Part shown: in pieces, positions 27,735 to 41,633 of the stretch
Numbering within the stretch: the stretch's first letter is position 1
How the letters are laid out: each line of letters begins with the position of its first letter
Assembly: GCA_963544995.1 (NCBI GenBank)
Contig: CAUUHH010000001.1
Coordinates: 31,465 to 95,464 of the forward strand
Direction: 5' to 3'
DNA: 64,000 nt
From: an uncultured Alphaproteobacteria bacterium
GTDB lineage: Bacteria; Pseudomonadota; Alphaproteobacteria; Rs-D84; CACZYB01
The notes under the pieces: generated by a model
Told to the model about the DNA's origin: nothing
Seen by the model: only the letters and a program-made list of their open reading frames with translations
Database searches by the model: none
Made by a program: the position numbers and the translations under genes

Positions 27735-28463
27735 TTATTGTAGTTTTGTTTTCTGAATATTATAAACCAAAAAAGCAAAAATTGATGAAGGTTGCTTTTT
27801 GTTTATTAATTTCTTATCCACAGTTTTAAGTACGGCGTGAAGAGCAATTTCGTACAATTCTGTTTTTGCATCTTTTCTGTTAAAAATAGATGCGGTTTTG
27901 TATATAAATTTTACCTTTGTTGTCCACCAGTCACCTTTTTTTTGTGGCATATCAATTATTTCAACTGTTCTTGTTATATTATTTTTCATTAAATCTTTTA
28001 TTTCTTGTAATTCACCATCTGATTTATTTATAAAATGACTGTATGCGTTTGTTATATCTGGACTGCCATCAGCCTTAAATCCTAAAATACTGGGCCTTTT
28101 TAGTAACCAACCGTGATTAAAATCTTTGATATCGCTTTCTAAGCCAAGATTGTTTTCCATTAAAATTTTTGAGTTATTTACAGTATATCGATTTATTAAA
28201 TATTCTACTATTAATTTTTTCATAAAATCATTACGAATTTTCGCTTTTTTACCAAGTGCTTGTCTTTCAAGTGGAATAATAGAAAAATTATTATCAGTTT
28301 CATTTTGATTTTTTATAATAAGGCTTTGGATTTTGAAATTATCTTCCTCTAAATAATTAAAAAAGACACTTGCAGAATAAAGTAAAACTATACTGGATAT
28401 AAAGCACAAAAATCCCAAAATCCACAATGGAGTAAATGATATATGTTTTTTGTTTTGTAGCAT
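27735..28463 (-). CDS. Bitopic membrane protein, possible divergent VirB8-like (NTF2-fold) protein; paralog of the upstream gene.
   Basis: N-terminal TM (LWILGFLCFISSIVLLYSA). Periplasmic segment has KKLIVEYLINRYTV resembling the VirB8 KYWLSQYVIARETY helix. 1-nt spacing to the upstream gene. Confidence 0.35.
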   Translation of the reverse strand: MLQNKKHISFTPLWILGFLCFISSIVLLYSASVFFNYLEEDNFKIQSLIIKNQNETDNNFSIIPLERQALGKKAKIRNDFMKKLIVEYLINRYTVNNSKILMENNLGLESDIKDFNHGWLLKRPSILGFKADGSPDITNAYSHFINKSDGELQEIKDLMKNNITRTVEIIDMPQKKGDWWTTKVKFIYKTASIFNRKDAKTELYEIALHAVLKTVDKKLINKKQPSSIFAFLVYNIQKTKLQ

Positions 28464-28464
28464 T

Positions 28465-29370
28465 TTAAATTACCCTATTATATATAGATAACAAATCATC
28501 CGCCCTTATAGAATGGAACATATAATTTTCTGAAATTATTTTTTGATATTCAGGCTCGTTATATAAACCGTTAACAGTTATATATCCTATAAAACTTTCT
28601 TTATCTGTGACTATATTATCCTTTATATCATTTATTATAAATACAATTTTATATATGGATGTCGCAGTAGCCTTTGGCATCTGTTTTAGATACTTTCCTG
28701 AAACAAATAACTTTAGTACTTTATCAACAAAATCCAATTTTGGAAAGGTTATATTATGGTGCAATCTTTTCATATCAAGAATTTGAACGGTTCTTTTTAT
28801 GCCGCTATTTGATGTATCAATATATTTGGTGTAATCATTTTCTATAAATGCGGAAAATACTTCTTTAGATGTAAAATTGCATAAATAGCATTTCGTATCA
28901 TCATTTAAAAAACCTATTTTTATTTTTTTTGTTTTATCCTCTTTGCAATCACACCACTTATTATAATTTTCAGCAAAAGAAGCGGATATAGAAAATCTGT
29001 TATTGATATAATTTGTTAAAAAATTTTGTTCCATATAATCATAAATATCTAAAATTTCTGTAGTTATAGCAGGATTTTTACCATAATAAGTTTTTGTATA
29101 AACAAATTTCTTATTTACAGAATCCCAATTAATAAATATAGGTTTGTTACTTTTTGAAAAAGCACGAATTAAAATTAATGAAGATAAAATTATGCTTATA
29201 AAAATTGATATATATAGCCATTTTGAAATTGCATAAATCCCAGCAATGTATTTTCGTTCTGGGAATCCAGCAACATCCACCTTAAACGGATAAACAGGTG
29301 AAGAAGTTAAATCACCACCATCTGATTTTTTTTTGGATTTAGATTTTATACTGTTGTTTGAAGTAACCAT
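28465..29370 (-). CDS. Bitopic membrane protein, possible divergent VirB8-like protein.
   Basis: Cytoplasmic N-terminus, TM (WLYISIFISIILSSLILIRAF), periplasmic domain with …MEQNFLTNYINNRFSIS… (VirB8-helix-like). Overlaps the upstream lipoprotein gene by 25 nt. Confidence 0.35.
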   Translation of the reverse strand: MVTSNNSIKSKSKKKSDGGDLTSSPVYPFKVDVAGFPERKYIAGIYAISKWLYISIFISIILSSLILIRAFSKSNKPIFINWDSVNKKFVYTKTYYGKNPAITTEILDIYDYMEQNFLTNYINNRFSISASFAENYNKWCDCKEDKTKKIKIGFLNDDTKCYLCNFTSKEVFSAFIENDYTKYIDTSNSGIKRTVQILDMKRLHHNITFPKLDFVDKVLKLFVSGKYLKQMPKATATSIYKIVFIINDIKDNIVTDKESFIGYITVNGLYNEPEYQKIISENYMFHSIRADDLLSIYNRVI

Positions 29371-29528
29371 TCTGGTAATCCCGGTTTTGTATCAACCTTT
29401 ATACAAGCACACGGAGACATCTTCAGTTCATTAACATCATAACCAACACCAACAGGGTCTGGTTCATACATTTGCCCACCACAACCAGATACTAACAATA
29501 GTAATGACACTGCAAAAAATTTTTTCAA
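29346..29528 (-). CDS. Small lipoprotein (60 aa), first gene of a three-gene operon; candidate VirB7-like lipoprotein.
   Basis: Lipobox MKKFFAVSLLLLVSG|C. Small size and position upstream of two VirB8-like genes. Confidence 0.4.
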   Translation of the reverse strand: MKKFFAVSLLLLVSGCGGQMYEPDPVGVGYDVNELKMSPCACIKVDTKPGLPEWLLQTTV

Positions 29529-29658
29529 TTTACAACTCCTTATCCTTCGTATAGAAGGTTACAAGATAGGATTTTTTTATGCAAGGTATTTTTCATGGTT
29601 TAAAAATTTAATGAACATGTTATAATTTGCCACATAAAAAAAATTGAAAGTTTTATAA

Positions 29659-31878: not shown

Positions 31879-32835
31879 TTAATTAGAACATTTTTCCAGT
31901 GTAAACGCAATATTTAATATTGATTCATTTATATCATGTTGAACTTTACGCATCTGTTTATCCTCGTATTCATAGATAAGCGCTGTTCTGTAGAATTTTT
32001 TGTCTTCATTGTACAACTTATAGAAATTTGCAATATTATTTCTTAACAAAGTTTTATTATTACAGATACAATCGGTTCTTGCCTCGTGTAGTGAATTATT
32101 TATTATTTTATCATTTATTATTTGATTTATATCTCTGTCGGCCACTACCATACAATTATTTTGCATACGATATTCTTTTGCATCGATCTTTAAAAAATTA
32201 TCTATACCTTCATCATTTACCTTATTTATTCTTAACCTTTCTGCAATATTTGCAACACAGCAAGATGATGAGATATTCAAAATATTTTTATAATTATTCA
32301 TTAAAATATTTAAATTTTTCTTCCTTCTTTCCTCTATTTTTTCACTATCATCTTCTTTTAATTCTTCCTCGTCATCATCAACCAGTTCTATTGGTTTTAT
32401 ATCCTCTTCTTTTATTTCAAGTGTACTTACTTCATTACTATTTGCAATACTATCAAGAAGTTCACGAATCTCGGTCTTACTTAATTTCTTATTAGAATTA
32501 GCTTTTTCATTTAGGACAAAAGGCATAACATCTATTGCGTCTTTTTTATGCTCCTTTTCTATTCTTTCTTTTCTTTGTTCTATTTGATAAAGAGGAATAT
32601 TTGCATTGACACTTGCCCCACCCCATAATGGAATATTTTTATCTAATTCTGATGGATTCGTGTTGTAATCAGATATAGAATTATTATCAGCATCATTCAA
32701 TAAAAAATCTTTTTTATTAGTTATATTCTTTGTTTGTACCATATTTGCAGATTTTTTGGAATCATTATTTATATTAGAGCAAGAGGAAAGATGGAAACTG
32801 CCAATTACGATAAAATATAATAAAATACGTTTCAT
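31879..32835 (-). CDS. Hypothetical lipoprotein with acidic central region and Cys-rich C-terminal domain, inserted between skp and lpxD.
   Basis: Lipobox LSSCSN. DDDEEELKEDDSEKIEE acidic stretch. C-terminal region has ≥8 Cys (SSSCCVANI…NNCMV…DCICNN…EKCSN). Confidence 0.45.
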   Translation of the reverse strand: MKRILLYFIVIGSFHLSSCSNINNDSKKSANMVQTKNITNKKDFLLNDADNNSISDYNTNPSELDKNIPLWGGASVNANIPLYQIEQRKERIEKEHKKDAIDVMPFVLNEKANSNKKLSKTEIRELLDSIANSNEVSTLEIKEEDIKPIELVDDDEEELKEDDSEKIEERRKKNLNILMNNYKNILNISSSCCVANIAERLRINKVNDEGIDNFLKIDAKEYRMQNNCMVVADRDINQIINDKIINNSLHEARTDCICNNKTLLRNNIANFYKLYNEDKKFYRTALIYEYEDKQMRKVQHDINESILNIAFTLEKCSN

Positions 32836-32921: not shown

Positions 32922-33449
32922 TTATTTTACCTCTAACTTTATCTCCTTTACCTCCTCATTTAAAGCATCTATTACTTCGGAAGTAACATCCAATTTTGTG
33001 TCTATTACCACAGCTGTTTGACCGTTTATTATTAATGAAAATTTCTTTTCTTTTCCTATTTTACTTATTATCCTATCTAAGTAATCTTTTTGTACCTTTT
33101 GAAGAGAATTTATGTAACCTTGCTCTATTGCAGATAATTTTTGTTGAGTCGCCTTATCTGTATTTACCATATCTAGTTGAAAAGTTTGTACGGCCTTTAC
33201 AAAAGCATCTTTATCCATTAATGCCTGCTTTGATTTTAAATCTGCCTCACGTTTTTCAAATTCTTTTCTTTTTTCCTCTACTGATTTTGTTACCTTTGCA
33301 ACCTCCGCTTCTTTTTGTCTATTAAGAGATTTCATTACACTGGCCTCTTTATTAAGCCTTAACAAATCTATTACTCCTATGCTTAAATCACCTGCAAAAG
33401 ATGGAGATACCAAAATAATACCTGTTAAAAATAAAATGAATTTTTTCAT
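32922..33449 (-). CDS. skp: Periplasmic chaperone Skp (OmpH).
   Basis: 175 aa. Signal peptide and coiled-coil-rich sequence (…VIDLLRLNKEASVMKSLNRQKEAE…), immediately downstream of bamA. Confidence 0.7.
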   Translation of the reverse strand: MKKFILFLTGIILVSPSFAGDLSIGVIDLLRLNKEASVMKSLNRQKEAEVAKVTKSVEEKRKEFEKREADLKSKQALMDKDAFVKAVQTFQLDMVNTDKATQQKLSAIEQGYINSLQKVQKDYLDRIISKIGKEKKFSLIINGQTAVVIDTKLDVTSEVIDALNEEVKEIKLEVK

Positions 33450-36912: not shown

Positions 36913-37641
36913 TTAAGAATGCTTACCAATTACCCTTGCAAAAGTGATAACAAAAATTTTCTTTGCACCATATTTTTTTAAAATCTTTGAACATTCGTTT
37001 ATTGTGGTTCCAGTTGTAAAAACATCATCCACAAGTAAAATAATTTTATCCTTTATTTTGTCTGAATGTTTTATAGAAAAAGCATTTTTAAGATTTTGTT
37101 TTCTTTCTTTTATTCCAAGATGCCCCTGTGATGCAGTATTTTTTATTCTGTTTAGTACATTATAATAAATGGGTTTTGAATAATGTTTTGCGATAATATT
37201 TCCGATTAATGAGGACTGGTTATATTTTCGTTTTATCATACGAAAAAGATGTATTGGAATTGGTAAAATTATATCCACAGATTTTATAAAAGAGTCATAA
37301 TTATTAATCATAAGTTTTGCAATGAGATTAGCGAATTCTGTCCTATCAGCATGTTTAAATGGAAGTATTATATTTTTTGCCATTTCGTTATAGATGGCAA
37401 CAGACCTTGCCATATCAAAATTAAATGATTTTTTTATACATGATGGACATAAATTAGAATCATTATCATACATATAAAATTCAAATGGATAGCCACAAGT
37501 AGGACAATAAGGCTTTGTTATAAATTCTAGTTTAGAAATACAATTATCACATAAGCCATCTGTATCTATACATTTTTTGCAAACATAGCATTCTGATGGA
37601 AAAATAAACTTTATTAAAAATTTTATAAATTTAGTTACCAT
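36913..37641 (-). CDS. comF: ComF/GntX-family phosphoribosyltransferase.
   Basis: N-terminal double zinc ribbon (CYVCKKC…CDNC…CPTCGYPF…CPSC) plus C-terminal PRTase motif ILLVDDVFTTGTT. Confidence 0.7.
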   Translation of the reverse strand: MVTKFIKFLIKFIFPSECYVCKKCIDTDGLCDNCISKLEFITKPYCPTCGYPFEFYMYDNDSNLCPSCIKKSFNFDMARSVAIYNEMAKNIILPFKHADRTEFANLIAKLMINNYDSFIKSVDIILPIPIHLFRMIKRKYNQSSLIGNIIAKHYSKPIYYNVLNRIKNTASQGHLGIKERKQNLKNAFSIKHSDKIKDKIILLVDDVFTTGTTINECSKILKKYGAKKIFVITFARVIGKHS

Positions 37642-39287
37642 TTCATAATGGCATATTCTTTTGCAGATGCATCTTCGTCACCGAAAATATCCGAGGCAGT
37701 AGCTATTTTCAATTTTTCTATTTTATCATTTGATACAACACGAAATGCAAAACTGTTTTCATCCCTGTTACTTAAGACTGGTCTTATCTGCCTATCGGAA
37801 ATTCCACTTTCTCTTATAATATTGCTTACCAAGGCAAGACGTCTTGCCGTTAATTTTTTCTTATCCAAATTATTCATGGTAGATTGCGGTAATGTTATTT
37901 CGATAGAAGAAGTTGGTCTGTCAGCAACTATTTGAGAAAAAGATCTTAATAAATTTACACTATCACCAGAAATAGCGCTGCTTTCTTTCTGAAAATCAAC
38001 TTTCATCTGTAAAACTTCTCTTGTTCCAACTTTTAATGAACCCGTTGGCTTTGCGTTTTTCTTACTGTTTTCAATCTTTGCTCTTATACTATTTACGTCT
38101 ATCAAAGGTTCCGTTTTAACTGTAGCTCCAGGAACAGAATGTTTAACATCGGATTTATTAGATTCTTCTTTCGCATTTGTTGATTTTTGTTCATCAACTA
38201 TATTTTCGCTGCCTCCACCTTCTTCTTCCGATTTTTTATCCTCTACTTTTTCCGCAGAGTCATCTGTATCTTTTGCATCATTAGTATCTTCGTTGGTATC
38301 ATCAACATTCTCTTCATCTATTTCAACAGGAGATAAATACTTATTATCAGATAAATAAGTTCTGTTTAAATCTTTTTTCAAATCAGATGGAGAGATGTAT
38401 GCGAAATTTTTCTCTATTTTCTTAAATTTTGGAGTAGTAGTAAAAATTTTTGTATCAACTTTTTCTGGTTTTAACGCCGAAAAAGCCTTTACAAAGGGAT
38501 TATCTTTTATTTTAGTTCCATAATAAATTTTTTCTGTTTTATTATTTGTTTTCTTAGTAGGTTTTATATTATCACCCATCATATATGCTAAACTTTTTGG
38601 AATTTTCCTATTATTTGCAAGTGTTATTTCTTCTTCCCCTTCATAATCTTGATATTTAGGTGTTTGTTCTTTATGTTCAACTATTGGAAATAGAGGTGTG
38701 TTTGTATTACTATTTGCAACTGAAACAGTTTTATCCATTATTACTGGTGGTGTAAAATTTTTATGATTTTTTGTTTTATTTTGTTTCCTGTTTTTTTTAG
38801 GAGGAATGTTTGTAAATACCTTTTCCCCTACATTACTGCTATTTTCAAATTCTTTTGGTGAAGTCATAGAAACTAATACTTCTTCCCCTTCACCTATATT
38901 TAAATTATCAAACCTATCAATAATTTTTGATTCTTTTCTTTCTATTACAGGTTTATTAACAGCAACTTTTGCAACAAACTTTTCTATTTTTCTAAATGAT
39001 TTCGTTTCAGAAGATTTCAGTTCTTCAATTTTATTATTTTTATTCTCAACGCTATCAGAAATTTTTAAATTTTGTTTTGTATCATTTTCTATTTTTGTTT
39101 CTGTGTTTAAATCTTCATCATCTGGAATGGATGCAATATTTGATACTTCTGCATCATCAATAAGAGCAATATTAGGTGCAAAGGCAGAATTTATATCTGA
39201 TGATAAATTCTGCCTTATAACATCAAGGGCATAAGAATTATTTGAGATGTAAATACACATCAAAAATAAACTTATCTTTTTTAACAT
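37635..39287 (-). CDS. Secreted low-complexity protein (K/E/N/D/T-rich) with possible OmpA/MotB-like C-terminal peptidoglycan-binding domain.
   Basis: Signal peptide MLKKISLFLMCIYISNNSYA. About 350 aa of low-complexity charged sequence. C-terminal …LRSFSQIVADRPTSSIEI…NLDKKKLTARRLALVSNIIRESGISDRQI… loosely fits the OmpA-C motif. Overlaps the comF start by 7 nt. Confidence 0.45.
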   Translation of the reverse strand: MLKKISLFLMCIYISNNSYALDVIRQNLSSDINSAFAPNIALIDDAEVSNIASIPDDEDLNTETKIENDTKQNLKISDSVENKNNKIEELKSSETKSFRKIEKFVAKVAVNKPVIERKESKIIDRFDNLNIGEGEEVLVSMTSPKEFENSSNVGEKVFTNIPPKKNRKQNKTKNHKNFTPPVIMDKTVSVANSNTNTPLFPIVEHKEQTPKYQDYEGEEEITLANNRKIPKSLAYMMGDNIKPTKKTNNKTEKIYYGTKIKDNPFVKAFSALKPEKVDTKIFTTTPKFKKIEKNFAYISPSDLKKDLNRTYLSDNKYLSPVEIDEENVDDTNEDTNDAKDTDDSAEKVEDKKSEEEGGGSENIVDEQKSTNAKEESNKSDVKHSVPGATVKTEPLIDVNSIRAKIENSKKNAKPTGSLKVGTREVLQMKVDFQKESSAISGDSVNLLRSFSQIVADRPTSSIEITLPQSTMNNLDKKKLTARRLALVSNIIRESGISDRQIRPVLSNRDENSFAFRVVSNDKIEKLKIATASDIFGDEDASAKEYAIMKW

Positions 39288-39437: not shown

Positions 39438-41633
39438 ATGAAAAAATTTATATCAGATAATGATATATTTAATATTTCTGTTGGTAAGTGTAATGATCCG
39501 TTTAAATTCCTTGGCATACATAAAATTGAAGAAACAGATTTTTCTGTTATAAGAGTGTTTAACCCATTTGCAACTTCTATTATTGTTTTAACAGATGATA
39601 TATCTTTTTCTCCAAGTATGGTAAAAATTCATGATAATGGTTTATTTGAAGCAATAGTTAAGAGTGATATAAAAAATTATAAACTTCTTGTTTCTTTTTA
39701 TGATGGAAAGGAAAAAGTAATTAGTGATCCATATAAATTCTCATCAACAATAGGTGATGTGGATGAATATTTATTTAATGAAGGTAAGCATACTGAATTA
39801 TTTAATAAACTAGGGGCTCATCTTGCAACAATGGATAATGAGAACGGTGTCTGTTTTGCCGTTTTTGCACCAAATGCATTTCGTGTAAGTGTTGTTGGGG
39901 ATTTTAATAATTGGGATGGCAGAGTCCATGTTATGAGAAAAAATATCAATAGTGGTATATGGGATATTTTTATTCCTGGTATTGTTGAAGGTGTCGTTTA
40001 TAAATATGAAATACTAGATAAAAATCAAAACTTACTACCTCTTAAAACTGATCCATTTGGGTATTTCCAAGAAATGAGACCTAAAACTGCTTCTGTGGTT
40101 TATAATTTAGATAGATTTAAATGGTCAGATAGTGATGTGTGGAATAGTAAAAAATTTAGCATTAATAACCTTGATAAACCAGTATCCATTTATGAAGTGC
40201 ATTTTGGTTCATGGAAGAAAAAAGATGGTTGTAAGTGGCTCAGTTATAGGGATATGGCATATGATTTAGTTCCATATGTTAAAAATATGGGATTTACACA
40301 TATAGAATTGATGCCAATAATGGAATATCCATTTGATGGGTCATGGGGATATCAAACAACGGGGATGTTTGCACCTACCTCTCGTTATGGCGGGCCAGAA
40401 GATTTTCAATATTTTATAGATACATGTCATAGTAATGGAATAGGTGTAATCCTAGATTGGGTTTCAGCACATTTTCCAAAAGATGAACATGGGCTTTCTA
40501 TGTTTGATGGGACTGCACTTTATGAATATGAAGATAGCAGAAAAGGAGAGCATAAAGATTGGGGAACAAAAATTTATGATTATTCAAAAAAACAAGTAGT
40601 AAATTTTTTATTATCATCAGCTTTGTTCTGGGTAAAAAAATATAGAGTAGATGGAATTAGATTTGATGCGGTTGCATCAATGTTATATTTAGATTACAGT
40701 AGAAATTATAATGAGTGGGTACCAAATAAATATGGTGGCAAGGAAAATTTAGAGGCAATAGAGTTTTTGAAACAAGCCAATATTTTGTTATATAAGGAAG
40801 CACCTAATATTGCGACATTTGCAGAAGAATCAACTAGTTGGAAGGATGTGTCGAAACCAACAGAGGTTGGAGGTCTTGGGTTTGGATATAAGTGGAATAT
40901 GGGTTGGATGAATGATTCTTTATCATATATAACAAAAGATCCAATATATAGAAAGCATCATCATGGATTTTTGCATTTTTGTTCAGTTTATGCTTTTAAT
41001 GAAAATTTTGTTCTTCCTATTTCTCATGATGAAGTAGTACATGGCAAAAAAAATATGATAAATAAAATGCCAGGTGATGAATGGCAAAAATTTGCAAATC
41101 TTCGTTTATTTTATTCTATGATGTGGACATTTCCTGGAAAAAAGTTATTATTTATGGGGTGTGAAATAGCACAATATGAAGAATGGGATAAAGATAGCAG
41201 TATCAGTTGGCATTTATTATCAGACAGCAGACATAAGGCTGTGCAAAGTATAGTAAGAGATTTAAATACTATATATAGAAAAGAAGCTGCATTGTATGAA
41301 AATGATGCAAATGCAGCTGGGTTTTCGTGGATTTGTAGTGATGATAATCAAAATAGTGTTTTTTCATACATAAGATATGCAAAAGATAAAAACGATTATT
41401 TGATAATAGTTTTAAATATGACTCCGGTCGTTAGAAATAATTATAGAATAGGAATTCCAGATAGTGGAATATTTACGGAAATTTTTAATAGTGATGATGA
41501 AAAATACACTGGATCTGGAATTAAAAATAGCACATTTATAAAATATGAAAATATACAAAGTCATGGACATGAATTTTCAATAGAATTAACATTGCCACCA
41601 CTTGGTTGTTTAATATTAAAGCCACTTAATTAA
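39438..41633 (+). CDS. glgB: 1,4-alpha-glucan branching enzyme.
   Basis: 731 aa. N-terminal CBM48 domain. GH13 catalytic core (…GFTHIELMPIMEYPFDGSWGYQTTG…, …VDGIRFDAVASMLY…, …FAEESTSW…, …HDEVVHGK…) and C-terminal beta domain. Confidence 0.9.
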   Translation: MKKFISDNDIFNISVGKCNDPFKFLGIHKIEETDFSVIRVFNPFATSIIVLTDDISFSPSMVKIHDNGLFEAIVKSDIKNYKLLVSFYDGKEKVISDPYKFSSTIGDVDEYLFNEGKHTELFNKLGAHLATMDNENGVCFAVFAPNAFRVSVVGDFNNWDGRVHVMRKNINSGIWDIFIPGIVEGVVYKYEILDKNQNLLPLKTDPFGYFQEMRPKTASVVYNLDRFKWSDSDVWNSKKFSINNLDKPVSIYEVHFGSWKKKDGCKWLSYRDMAYDLVPYVKNMGFTHIELMPIMEYPFDGSWGYQTTGMFAPTSRYGGPEDFQYFIDTCHSNGIGVILDWVSAHFPKDEHGLSMFDGTALYEYEDSRKGEHKDWGTKIYDYSKKQVVNFLLSSALFWVKKYRVDGIRFDAVASMLYLDYSRNYNEWVPNKYGGKENLEAIEFLKQANILLYKEAPNIATFAEESTSWKDVSKPTEVGGLGFGYKWNMGWMNDSLSYITKDPIYRKHHHGFLHFCSVYAFNENFVLPISHDEVVHGKKNMINKMPGDEWQKFANLRLFYSMMWTFPGKKLLFMGCEIAQYEEWDKDSSISWHLLSDSRHKAVQSIVRDLNTIYRKEAALYENDANAAGFSWICSDDNQNSVFSYIRYAKDKNDYLIIVLNMTPVVRNNYRIGIPDSGIFTEIFNSDDEKYTGSGIKNSTFIKYENIQSHGHEFSIELTLPPLGCLILKPLN

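Follow-up and report, generated by a model that had tools for sequence, protein, structure and literature searches.

A conserved three-gene operon

In a 64,000-nucleotide stretch of DNA from an uncultured Alphaproteobacteria bacterium (hereafter the window), three consecutive minus-strand genes encode a small lipoprotein and two larger proteins, called B and C here, which resemble the VirB7 and VirB8 components of type IV secretion systems (T4SSs). The lipoprotein gene, a virB7-like open reading frame (ORF) of 60 aa (29346-29528, minus strand), begins with a TTG codon, and a Shine-Dalgarno sequence, AAGGAG (29536-29541, minus strand), can be read directly in the sequence 7 nt upstream of it. 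Genes B (28465-29370, minus strand, 301 aa) and C (27735-28463, minus strand, 242 aa), candidate divergent paralogues of virB8, both start with ATG. The ATG of B lies inside the P-E-W-L codons of the lipoprotein gene, giving an overlap of 25 nt, and a single nucleotide separates the stop codon of B (TAA) from the ATG of C.

A preliminary description made from the sequence alone had claimed three overlapping or abutting genes here. Indeed, all three ORFs are present and their overlaps recur in relatives: B and C overlap or abut in 18/18 triplet loci, with a spacing of -17 to +2 nt except at one locus (L007), where the longest-ORF start is an artefact, and the lipoprotein-B overlap is 22-25 nt at the three loci measured. 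Sequence searches with B and C returned only a handful of homologues; one 52-kb contig (L001) carries a triplet of 60, 292 and 238 aa in the same neighbourhood as in the window. Of the three proteins the lipoprotein is clearly the best conserved, with 73% identity where B and C have about 40%. The triplet is kept in at least 18 species-level genomes. The ratio of non-synonymous to synonymous substitution rates (dN/dS) is about 0.19-0.25 in B and 0.09-0.20 in C, which indicates purifying selection; dS is close to saturation. Because of this conservation and these low dN/dS values, the triplet does not consist of chance ORFs: the lipoprotein, B and C are real, selected and co-translated genes that form one translationally coupled operon. 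A scan for promoters and terminators gave fewer promoter-like sites than in shuffled sequences, and no terminator was seen.

The lipoprotein and its relatives

The preliminary description had also announced a 60-aa lipoprotein with the lipobox VSG|C, and the lipobox LLVSG|C16 is found in the ORF. Its N-terminus reads MKKFFAVSLLLLVSG|C16, with a lipobox cysteine that is invariant in 18 aligned homologues and a glycine at position +2. Size, signal peptide and lipobox cysteine are those of a VirB7 (about 45-70 aa). Further invariant segments are PVGxG, ELKxSPCAC (aa 34-42, nt 29403-29429) and TKPGLPEW. The second of these, ELK[MLI]SPC40AC42, supplies a second conserved cysteine. In Rickettsia VirB7 and in ComB7 the second conserved cysteine is flanked by a [KI]KSP motif (PMC2653234), which the K-x-S-P-Cys arrangement of the lipoprotein resembles. 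We also considered an LptM-like identity for the lipoprotein; it was dropped, the NCBIfam match being restricted to the signal peptide.

A lipoprotein profile retrieved 19 homologues; further relatives came from at least 507 species-representative genomes, virtually all of them metagenome-assembled genomes (MAGs) of uncultured gut, rumen or termite Alphaproteobacteria. Several MAGs with a T4SS locus (L005-L084) are labelled Bacteroidales, Lachnospiraceae or Azospirillaceae, which probably reflects binning or taxonomy errors. In about 60 MAG loci, in Alphaproteobacteria bacterium UBA5343 (L003) and in two annotated plasmids from Sphingomonadales, the next genes downstream of the homologue are virB8-virB9, and the motif LKxxPCAC...GLPxF/W is common to the lipoprotein and to the homologues found upstream of virB8-virB9-virB10. 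When the ORFs of 80 fetched loci were classified with hidden Markov models (HMMs), three architectures emerged. The most frequent (about 60 loci) is virB4...virB8a-lipoprotein-virB8b-virB9. At L003, the homologue is found between two VirB8 fragments and virB8-virB9-virB10, inside a virB2...virB4...virB6 operon. The fragments there correspond to an upstream VirB8a paralogue split into two ORFs of 123 and 127 aa as called on the contig (8874-9843). The split may be due to an assembly error, or the gene may be frameshifted or a pseudogene.

Searching plasmids by tblastn led to small ORFs annotated as hypothetical, located between a virB6-like gene and virB8 on plasmids of Erythrobacter aureus and Sphingosinicella. 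These two operons are annotated with TrbC/VirB2, VirB4, VirB8/TrbF, TrbG/VirB9, TrbI/VirB10, a VirB11-type ATPase and VirD4. The plasmid proteins (WP_115418092.1, 'hypothetical protein', in E. aureus) share with the window lipoprotein the lipobox, VGVG, LK[RM][TS]PCAC, GLPxF and the slot between virB6 and virB8; they are about 42-50% identical to it over 36-41 residues (E = 7e-4 to 1e-2) and are directly followed by a single canonical VirB8.

Overall, copies of the lipoprotein that sit inside T4SS operons share 45-85% identity with it. Through its homologues it occupies the VirB7 position upstream of virB8-virB9(-virB10); in the window the operon is split, and B and C intervene. No further small lipoprotein gene is present upstream of the window's own virB8, where DUF192 and rbfA genes occupy the space. 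Because of its operon position, the shared motif and the lack of any other lipoprotein gene by this virB8, the lipoprotein is the system's own VirB7 and not an extra copy. The proposal of an additional VirB7/VirB8a/VirB8b set has to be amended in this sense: a VirB7 and two diverged VirB8 paralogues are indeed encoded here, but they do not make up a second set, the lipoprotein being the sole VirB7 candidate seen.

Proteins B and C

AlphaFold models place a single N-proximal helix at residues 38-72 of B (transmembrane segment at about aa 46-68, nt 29167-29235) and 13-39 of C (about aa 13-35, nt 28359-28427). The N-termini are Lys-rich and a globular domain follows the transmembrane helix, suggesting that B and C are bitopic inner-membrane proteins, as VirB8 is. 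The two had been described as paralogous bitopic proteins; the single helix in each and the profile comparisons below bear this out.

At the level of single sequences the relationship is faint. BLASTP gave E = 0.016 for B against C, pairwise values among B, C and the window VirB8 were marginal (E 0.006-0.55), and hhalign run on small initial alignments (5 versus 2 sequences) reached a probability of 12.6%. Using family alignments of 18 to 66 members built from the fetched loci, hhalign probabilities rose to 97.0% for B-C (96.2% with the periplasmic domains only), 97.2% for B-VirB8b (95.6%), 92.2% for B-VirB8a (92.6%), 96.6% for C-VirB8a (95.6%) and 96.6% for C-VirB8b (95.7%). As a control, any of these families against VirB9 gave at most 1.6% over the full length and 1.1% for the periplasmic domains. 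The corresponding hhalign values are near-equal (B-C 2.6e-9, B-VirB8b 1.3e-8, C-VirB8a 1.2e-8, C-VirB8b 9e-9) and assign neither protein as an orthologue of VirB8a or VirB8b. B and C are thus paralogues whose relationship is detectable only at the profile level.

It had been claimed that helices in the periplasmic domains align with the signature helix of VirB8. Indeed, with the periplasmic domains alone, hhalign aligns the B motif 112-YMEQNFLTNYINNRFSIS (aa 112-129) and the C motif 80-FMKKLIVEYLINRYTV (aa 80-95, nt 28179-28226) column for column with the window VirB8 helix EIAKYYITNYITDRETLY.

Intermediate sequences provide a second link. When 1.84 billion representative sequences were searched exhaustively by HMMER, the B profile yielded 59 hits. 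Among them, reached at E <= 1e-3, are 20 proteins that Pfam recognises as VirB8 (PF04335), the best with E = 1.9e-19. Intermediates such as P0036 score 6e-26 with the B profile and also lie above the Pfam VirB8 cutoff. The cytoplasmic tail of B carries the motif VYPFxxDVxxFPERKY (aa 26-41, nt 29248-29295), and the form YPxxVxVxAFPER(R/K)Y(L/I) is common to B and the true VirB8 proteins among the B-profile hits. Taken together, the transitive and profile-profile comparisons show homology of B and C with VirB8. Searching the PDB by hmmsearch with the shallow initial alignments gave only chance matches (a MarR regulator and a designed protein), and tblastn of B against plasmids gave no match. PilN/PilO/PilP-like and GspL/M-like identities were dropped for lack of any sequence link; P-type VirB8, by contrast, is linked directly.

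The predicted structures agree with this assignment. The VirB8-type NTF2-like fold consists of helices packed on a long curved antiparallel sheet, and the models of B and C predict a periplasmic domain of this type in both. With the C model, the top 47 PDB hits of Foldseek all belong to the VirB8 family, RvhB8-II (4o3v) being at rank 2; the profile and fold comparison with VirB8 suggested by the preliminary description, at 92-97% in hhalign, comes out in favour of the relationship on both counts. Foldseek with the B model places NTF2-like domains of PARC6/ARC6 among the top hits, as might be expected if B and C were generic NTF2-like periplasmic proteins (Tim44-, ARC6- or SnoaL-like) unrelated to VirB8 and resembling it by convergence, an account to which we give hardly any credence.

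Both proteins also have features of their own. B contains an insertion with four cysteines, W139-C140-x-C142...C161-x-x-C164 (nt 28879-28956). The four are nearly invariant, and the insertion is present neither in VirB8a, nor in VirB8b, nor in C; this Cys4 signature occurs in 29 of the 59 representative clusters (50% identity) of B-profile hits. The cytoplasmic tail of C is reduced to 11-12 residues, without the tail motif, and C carries a TRxVxI strand.

Extreme divergence, loss of the NPXG motif and absence of Pfam recognition could also mean that B and C are decaying, non-functional remnants of a VirB8 duplication. We regard this as highly improbable, given intact, length-conserved ORFs in 18 or more species, the invariant four cysteines and tail motif, dN/dS values of 0.09-0.25 with conserved gene overlaps, and confident fold predictions.

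Gene neighbourhoods and the proposed secretion machine

The two remaining architectures both contain the triplet. At 16 loci of the window clade, lipoprotein-B-C stands with no T4SS gene within 10 kb. At two bridging loci, L035 and L084, lipoprotein-B-C-virB8 (b-type) is contiguous on one strand, and at L084 virB9 follows 1.4 kb beyond virB8. B is directly downstream of the lipoprotein in all triplet loci. Through L035 and L084, B and C are therefore found inside a T4SS operon next to virB7 and virB9, and former contiguity of the triplet with virB8 is preserved there. The B proteins of the bridging loci are longer than usual, with 570 aa at L035 (10162-11874) and 390 aa at L084 (10162-11334) versus about 290, and Pfam matches nothing in the added stretches. 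P0046 (569 aa), P0044 (390 aa) and P0048 (432 aa) resemble them.

We propose that the ancestral operon was virB7-B-C-virB8(-virB9-virB10) and that a rearrangement in the window lineage left the triplet about 9 kb away from virB8-virB9-virB10. The triplet would then be a detached part of the organism's P-type (vir/rvh-like) T4SS, made up of VirB7 and two VirB8 paralogues, a reading to which we assign a probability of roughly 0.8.

Candidate partners are present in the window, where the triplet lies 9.3 kb from a canonical virB8 (17692-18420, minus strand; Pfam PF04335, E = 1.4e-10). Its product is VirB8b/RvhB8-I-like, with an NPLG motif and 68.7 bits with the VirB8b HMM versus 50.6 with that of VirB8a; together with B and C it brings the number of VirB8-type genes in the window to three. 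Next come virB9 (16112-17623, minus strand), with a CagX domain and a C-terminal SPOR domain in Pfam, and virB10 (13798-16074, minus strand, 758 aa), with a TrbI domain (Pfam PF03743, E = 8e-22). Between the triplet and virB8-virB9-virB10 are surA, lptD, lptF, pepF, ispH and a GNAT gene. VirB9 has a cysteine, Cys293, at the end of the CagX domain that is conserved in 98% of 66 orthologues; the partner in the VirB7-VirB9 disulfide of Agrobacterium and Rickettsia lies at the same place.

Under this reading, the 60-aa lipoprotein would carry its lipid on Cys16 and be directed to the outer membrane. There it would bind VirB9 at the C-terminal domain, perhaps with a disulfide that links its Cys40 or Cys42 to Cys293 of VirB9, and stabilise the VirB7-VirB9-VirB10 outer-membrane core. 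B and C would be ancient, fast-evolving bitopic VirB8 paralogues of the inner membrane that assemble with the canonical VirB8 into the periplasmic ring (the 'arches') and the inner-membrane complex of the same machine. Physical interactions among VirB7, B and C, and their co-assembly, would follow from such a model.

Several observations weigh against this reading. The triplet of the window and of its closest relatives lies among envelope-biogenesis housekeeping genes and not beside T4SS genes, and virB4, virB6, virB11 and virD4 are not found within the 64 kb. The lipoprotein has no meaningful match in Pfam and NCBIfam at E <= 10, the NCBIfam LvhB7 model (NF041529) giving E = 0.1 and 12.3 bits, under a cutoff of 70, over the signal peptide only. 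It also lacks the P[ILV]NK motif, its conserved C-terminal motif being TKPGLPEW; P[ILV]NK, of the pKM101 TraN type, inserts into the C-terminal domain of VirB9. B and C do not match PF04335 even at E <= 10, nor any NCBIfam model, and the NPXG motif of the major dimer interface is replaced by E-x-Y-M-F in B and P-S-S-[IL]-F in C (PSSIF in the window). Finally, the AlphaFold model of C is moderately confident (pLDDT, a predicted local-accuracy score, of 75.7) and less independent than it might be, the input alignment having contained VirB8 homologues.

The genomic setting invites another explanation, namely that a VirB7/VirB8-derived triplet now works independently of the T4SS as an envelope complex that spans the periplasm and serves, for instance, the homeostasis of the outer membrane or of lipids. 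This would account for its conserved position beside a VTT/DedA gene and the bamA-skp-lpxD-fabZ and lptF-lptD-surA clusters. A VTT/DedA gene always adjoins the triplet, with envelope-biogenesis genes nearby, in the window, L001, L002 and L004; however, the neighbourhood shared by close relatives may reflect genome-wide synteny. Two loci from more distant lineages, L085 and L086, have a lipoprotein with the core DPVGxG...AExKLSPCAC followed by a Cys4 B-like gene, and L085 adds a C-like gene (EYIVARYTV, TSRTVEIL); housekeeping genes surround both loci, and no T4SS gene is in view. Such an exaptation nevertheless seems unlikely to us: the lipoprotein shares 45-85% identity with T4SS-embedded copies and is the sole VirB7 candidate seen for the window's virB8-virB9-virB10, the bridging loci keep virB7-B-C-virB8 contiguous, and B retains the cytoplasmic tail motif of VirB8.

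The triplet might also belong to a second, separate T4SS elsewhere in the genome, as a true extra set. Only 64 kb of the genome are visible, some bacteria have several T4SSs, and Rickettsiales duplicate VirB4, VirB8 and VirB9 (PMC4676284). Yet the visible virB8-virB9-virB10 has no second lipoprotein gene, and at L035 and L084 the triplet is joined to a VirB8b-type gene, with virB9 within 1.5 kb at L084. We consider a second system very unlikely.

The detached-module reading is best compared with the rvh system of Rickettsiales. Its gene order, rvhB8-II/rvhB7/rvhB8-I (PMC4676284), is that of VirB8a-VirB7-VirB8b in about 60 related genomes, and a duplicated divergent VirB8, typical of rvh, is also found here, with three VirB8-type genes in the window versus two in Rickettsiales (PMC2653234, PMC4676284). 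The rvh architecture further includes duplicated VirB4 and VirB9, a multicopy VirB6 and no VirB5 (PMC11077975). The window has a single virB9, and a weak DUF4141 (VirB5-like) match at L003 argues against a strict rvh architecture in relatives. Like B and C, RvhB8-II has no NPXG (PMC4676284), but neither a four-cysteine insertion such as that of B nor a truncated tail such as that of C is described for it. In contrast to RvhB8-II, the upstream VirB8a of related gut MAGs keeps NPXG, and the duplications may thus be independent of the rickettsial one.

Other VirB8-type proteins are more distant. Unlike VirB8/TrwG of R388 and VirB8 of A. tumefaciens (PF04335), B and C fail the Pfam model and are without NPXG. 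DotI/DotJ (IcmL/IcmM) of Legionella and TraM of R64 belong to type IVB systems and have no detectable sequence relationship with B and C; membership in the DotI/DotJ family was dropped for this reason. DotJ lacks a periplasmic domain, whereas C lacks a cytoplasmic tail.

VirB8 is the central assembly factor of the T4SS, and since 2009 it has been asked what its duplicated, divergent forms do in Rickettsiales. By cryo-electron microscopy of the R388 system, the arches consist of six trimeric VirB8peri units in which three subunits have different interfaces, and each outer VirB4 engages three non-equivalent VirB8 tails, one of them barely (PMC9259494). There, one gene (VirB8/TrwG) supplies the three subunits (PMC9259494); here there are three genes. 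The number of paralogues matches that of the non-equivalent positions, and it is conceivable, as a tentative and testable idea of arch-trimer specialisation, that B, C and VirB8b form a heterotrimeric arch protomer, each taking one position. If so, the near-tail-less C would take the position whose tail makes sparse contact, and B, with its conserved tail motif and its Cys4 insertion (a knob held by disulfides or a metal), would make a periplasmic contact particular to the lineage. The spread of the triplet (L085, L086 and the 29 Cys4 clusters) would then mark an unrecognised T4SS subtype.

Our literature search found no description of three VirB8 paralogues in gut Alphaproteobacteria. New with respect to the rvh module are the third paralogue, the Cys4 insertion, the tail loss of C and the host, a large radiation of uncultured gut and rumen Alphaproteobacteria, where these genes are unannotated. 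Two VirB8 subfamilies, one with a unique Cys4 insertion and the other without a cytoplasmic tail, are missed by current HMM libraries, and in these abundant bacteria components of a T4SS can go unnoticed as 'hypothetical proteins' amid housekeeping genes. The lipoprotein family, with its strong motif and at least 507 species-level relatives, allows the small VirB7 of rvh-like and alphaproteobacterial T4SSs to be annotated.

The T4SS proteins themselves show further peculiarities. The SPOR domain of VirB9 (peptidoglycan-binding; Pfam E = 3.4e-5) includes a cysteine pair, C487 and C497, which 98% of the 66 orthologues share. Fusion of VirB9 to SPOR is uncommon, and it may stand in for a VirB1-type function or for one in peptidoglycan anchoring. 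In VirB10, the TrbI domain covers residues 444-663 only, leaving a large uncharacterised N-terminal/periplasmic extension with a weak ASH/MSP-like match at 153-214. At L016, a typical related locus, the place after virB9 at which one would expect virB10 is taken by a gene (12654-16385) for a 1243-aa protein rich in beta-flower/DUF3659/RHS-type repeats (Pfam E = 2e-74). It might be an effector or toxin, or else a much-elaborated protein of the VirB10 region.

As for the host, a full-length GlgB (39438-41633, plus strand) is encoded in an apparently streamlined genome of 29% GC with lipopolysaccharide (LPS) and Bam machinery. GlgB together with LPS/Bam is atypical of classical obligate intracellular Rickettsiales; the origin of the related MAGs from gut, rumen or termite samples would be consistent with a different lifestyle. 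Four sizeable ORFs without a Pfam match are found on the minus strand at 37635-39287 (550 aa), 58895-60427 (510 aa), 31879-32835 (318 aa) and 30-1232 (400 aa). The 318-aa ORF, located between an ORF that is probably skp (32922-33449) and lpxD, may encode a lineage-specific envelope protein. An ORF without a Pfam match also follows OmpH/skp at L001 (282 aa, before lpxD), L002 (257 aa, with no called lpxD) and L004 (299 aa, with two more ORFs before lpxD). Finally, a tRNA-Leu gene (4358-4442, plus strand) overlaps the 5′ end of a GVG-start ORF (4364-5788), the true start of which is probably further downstream.

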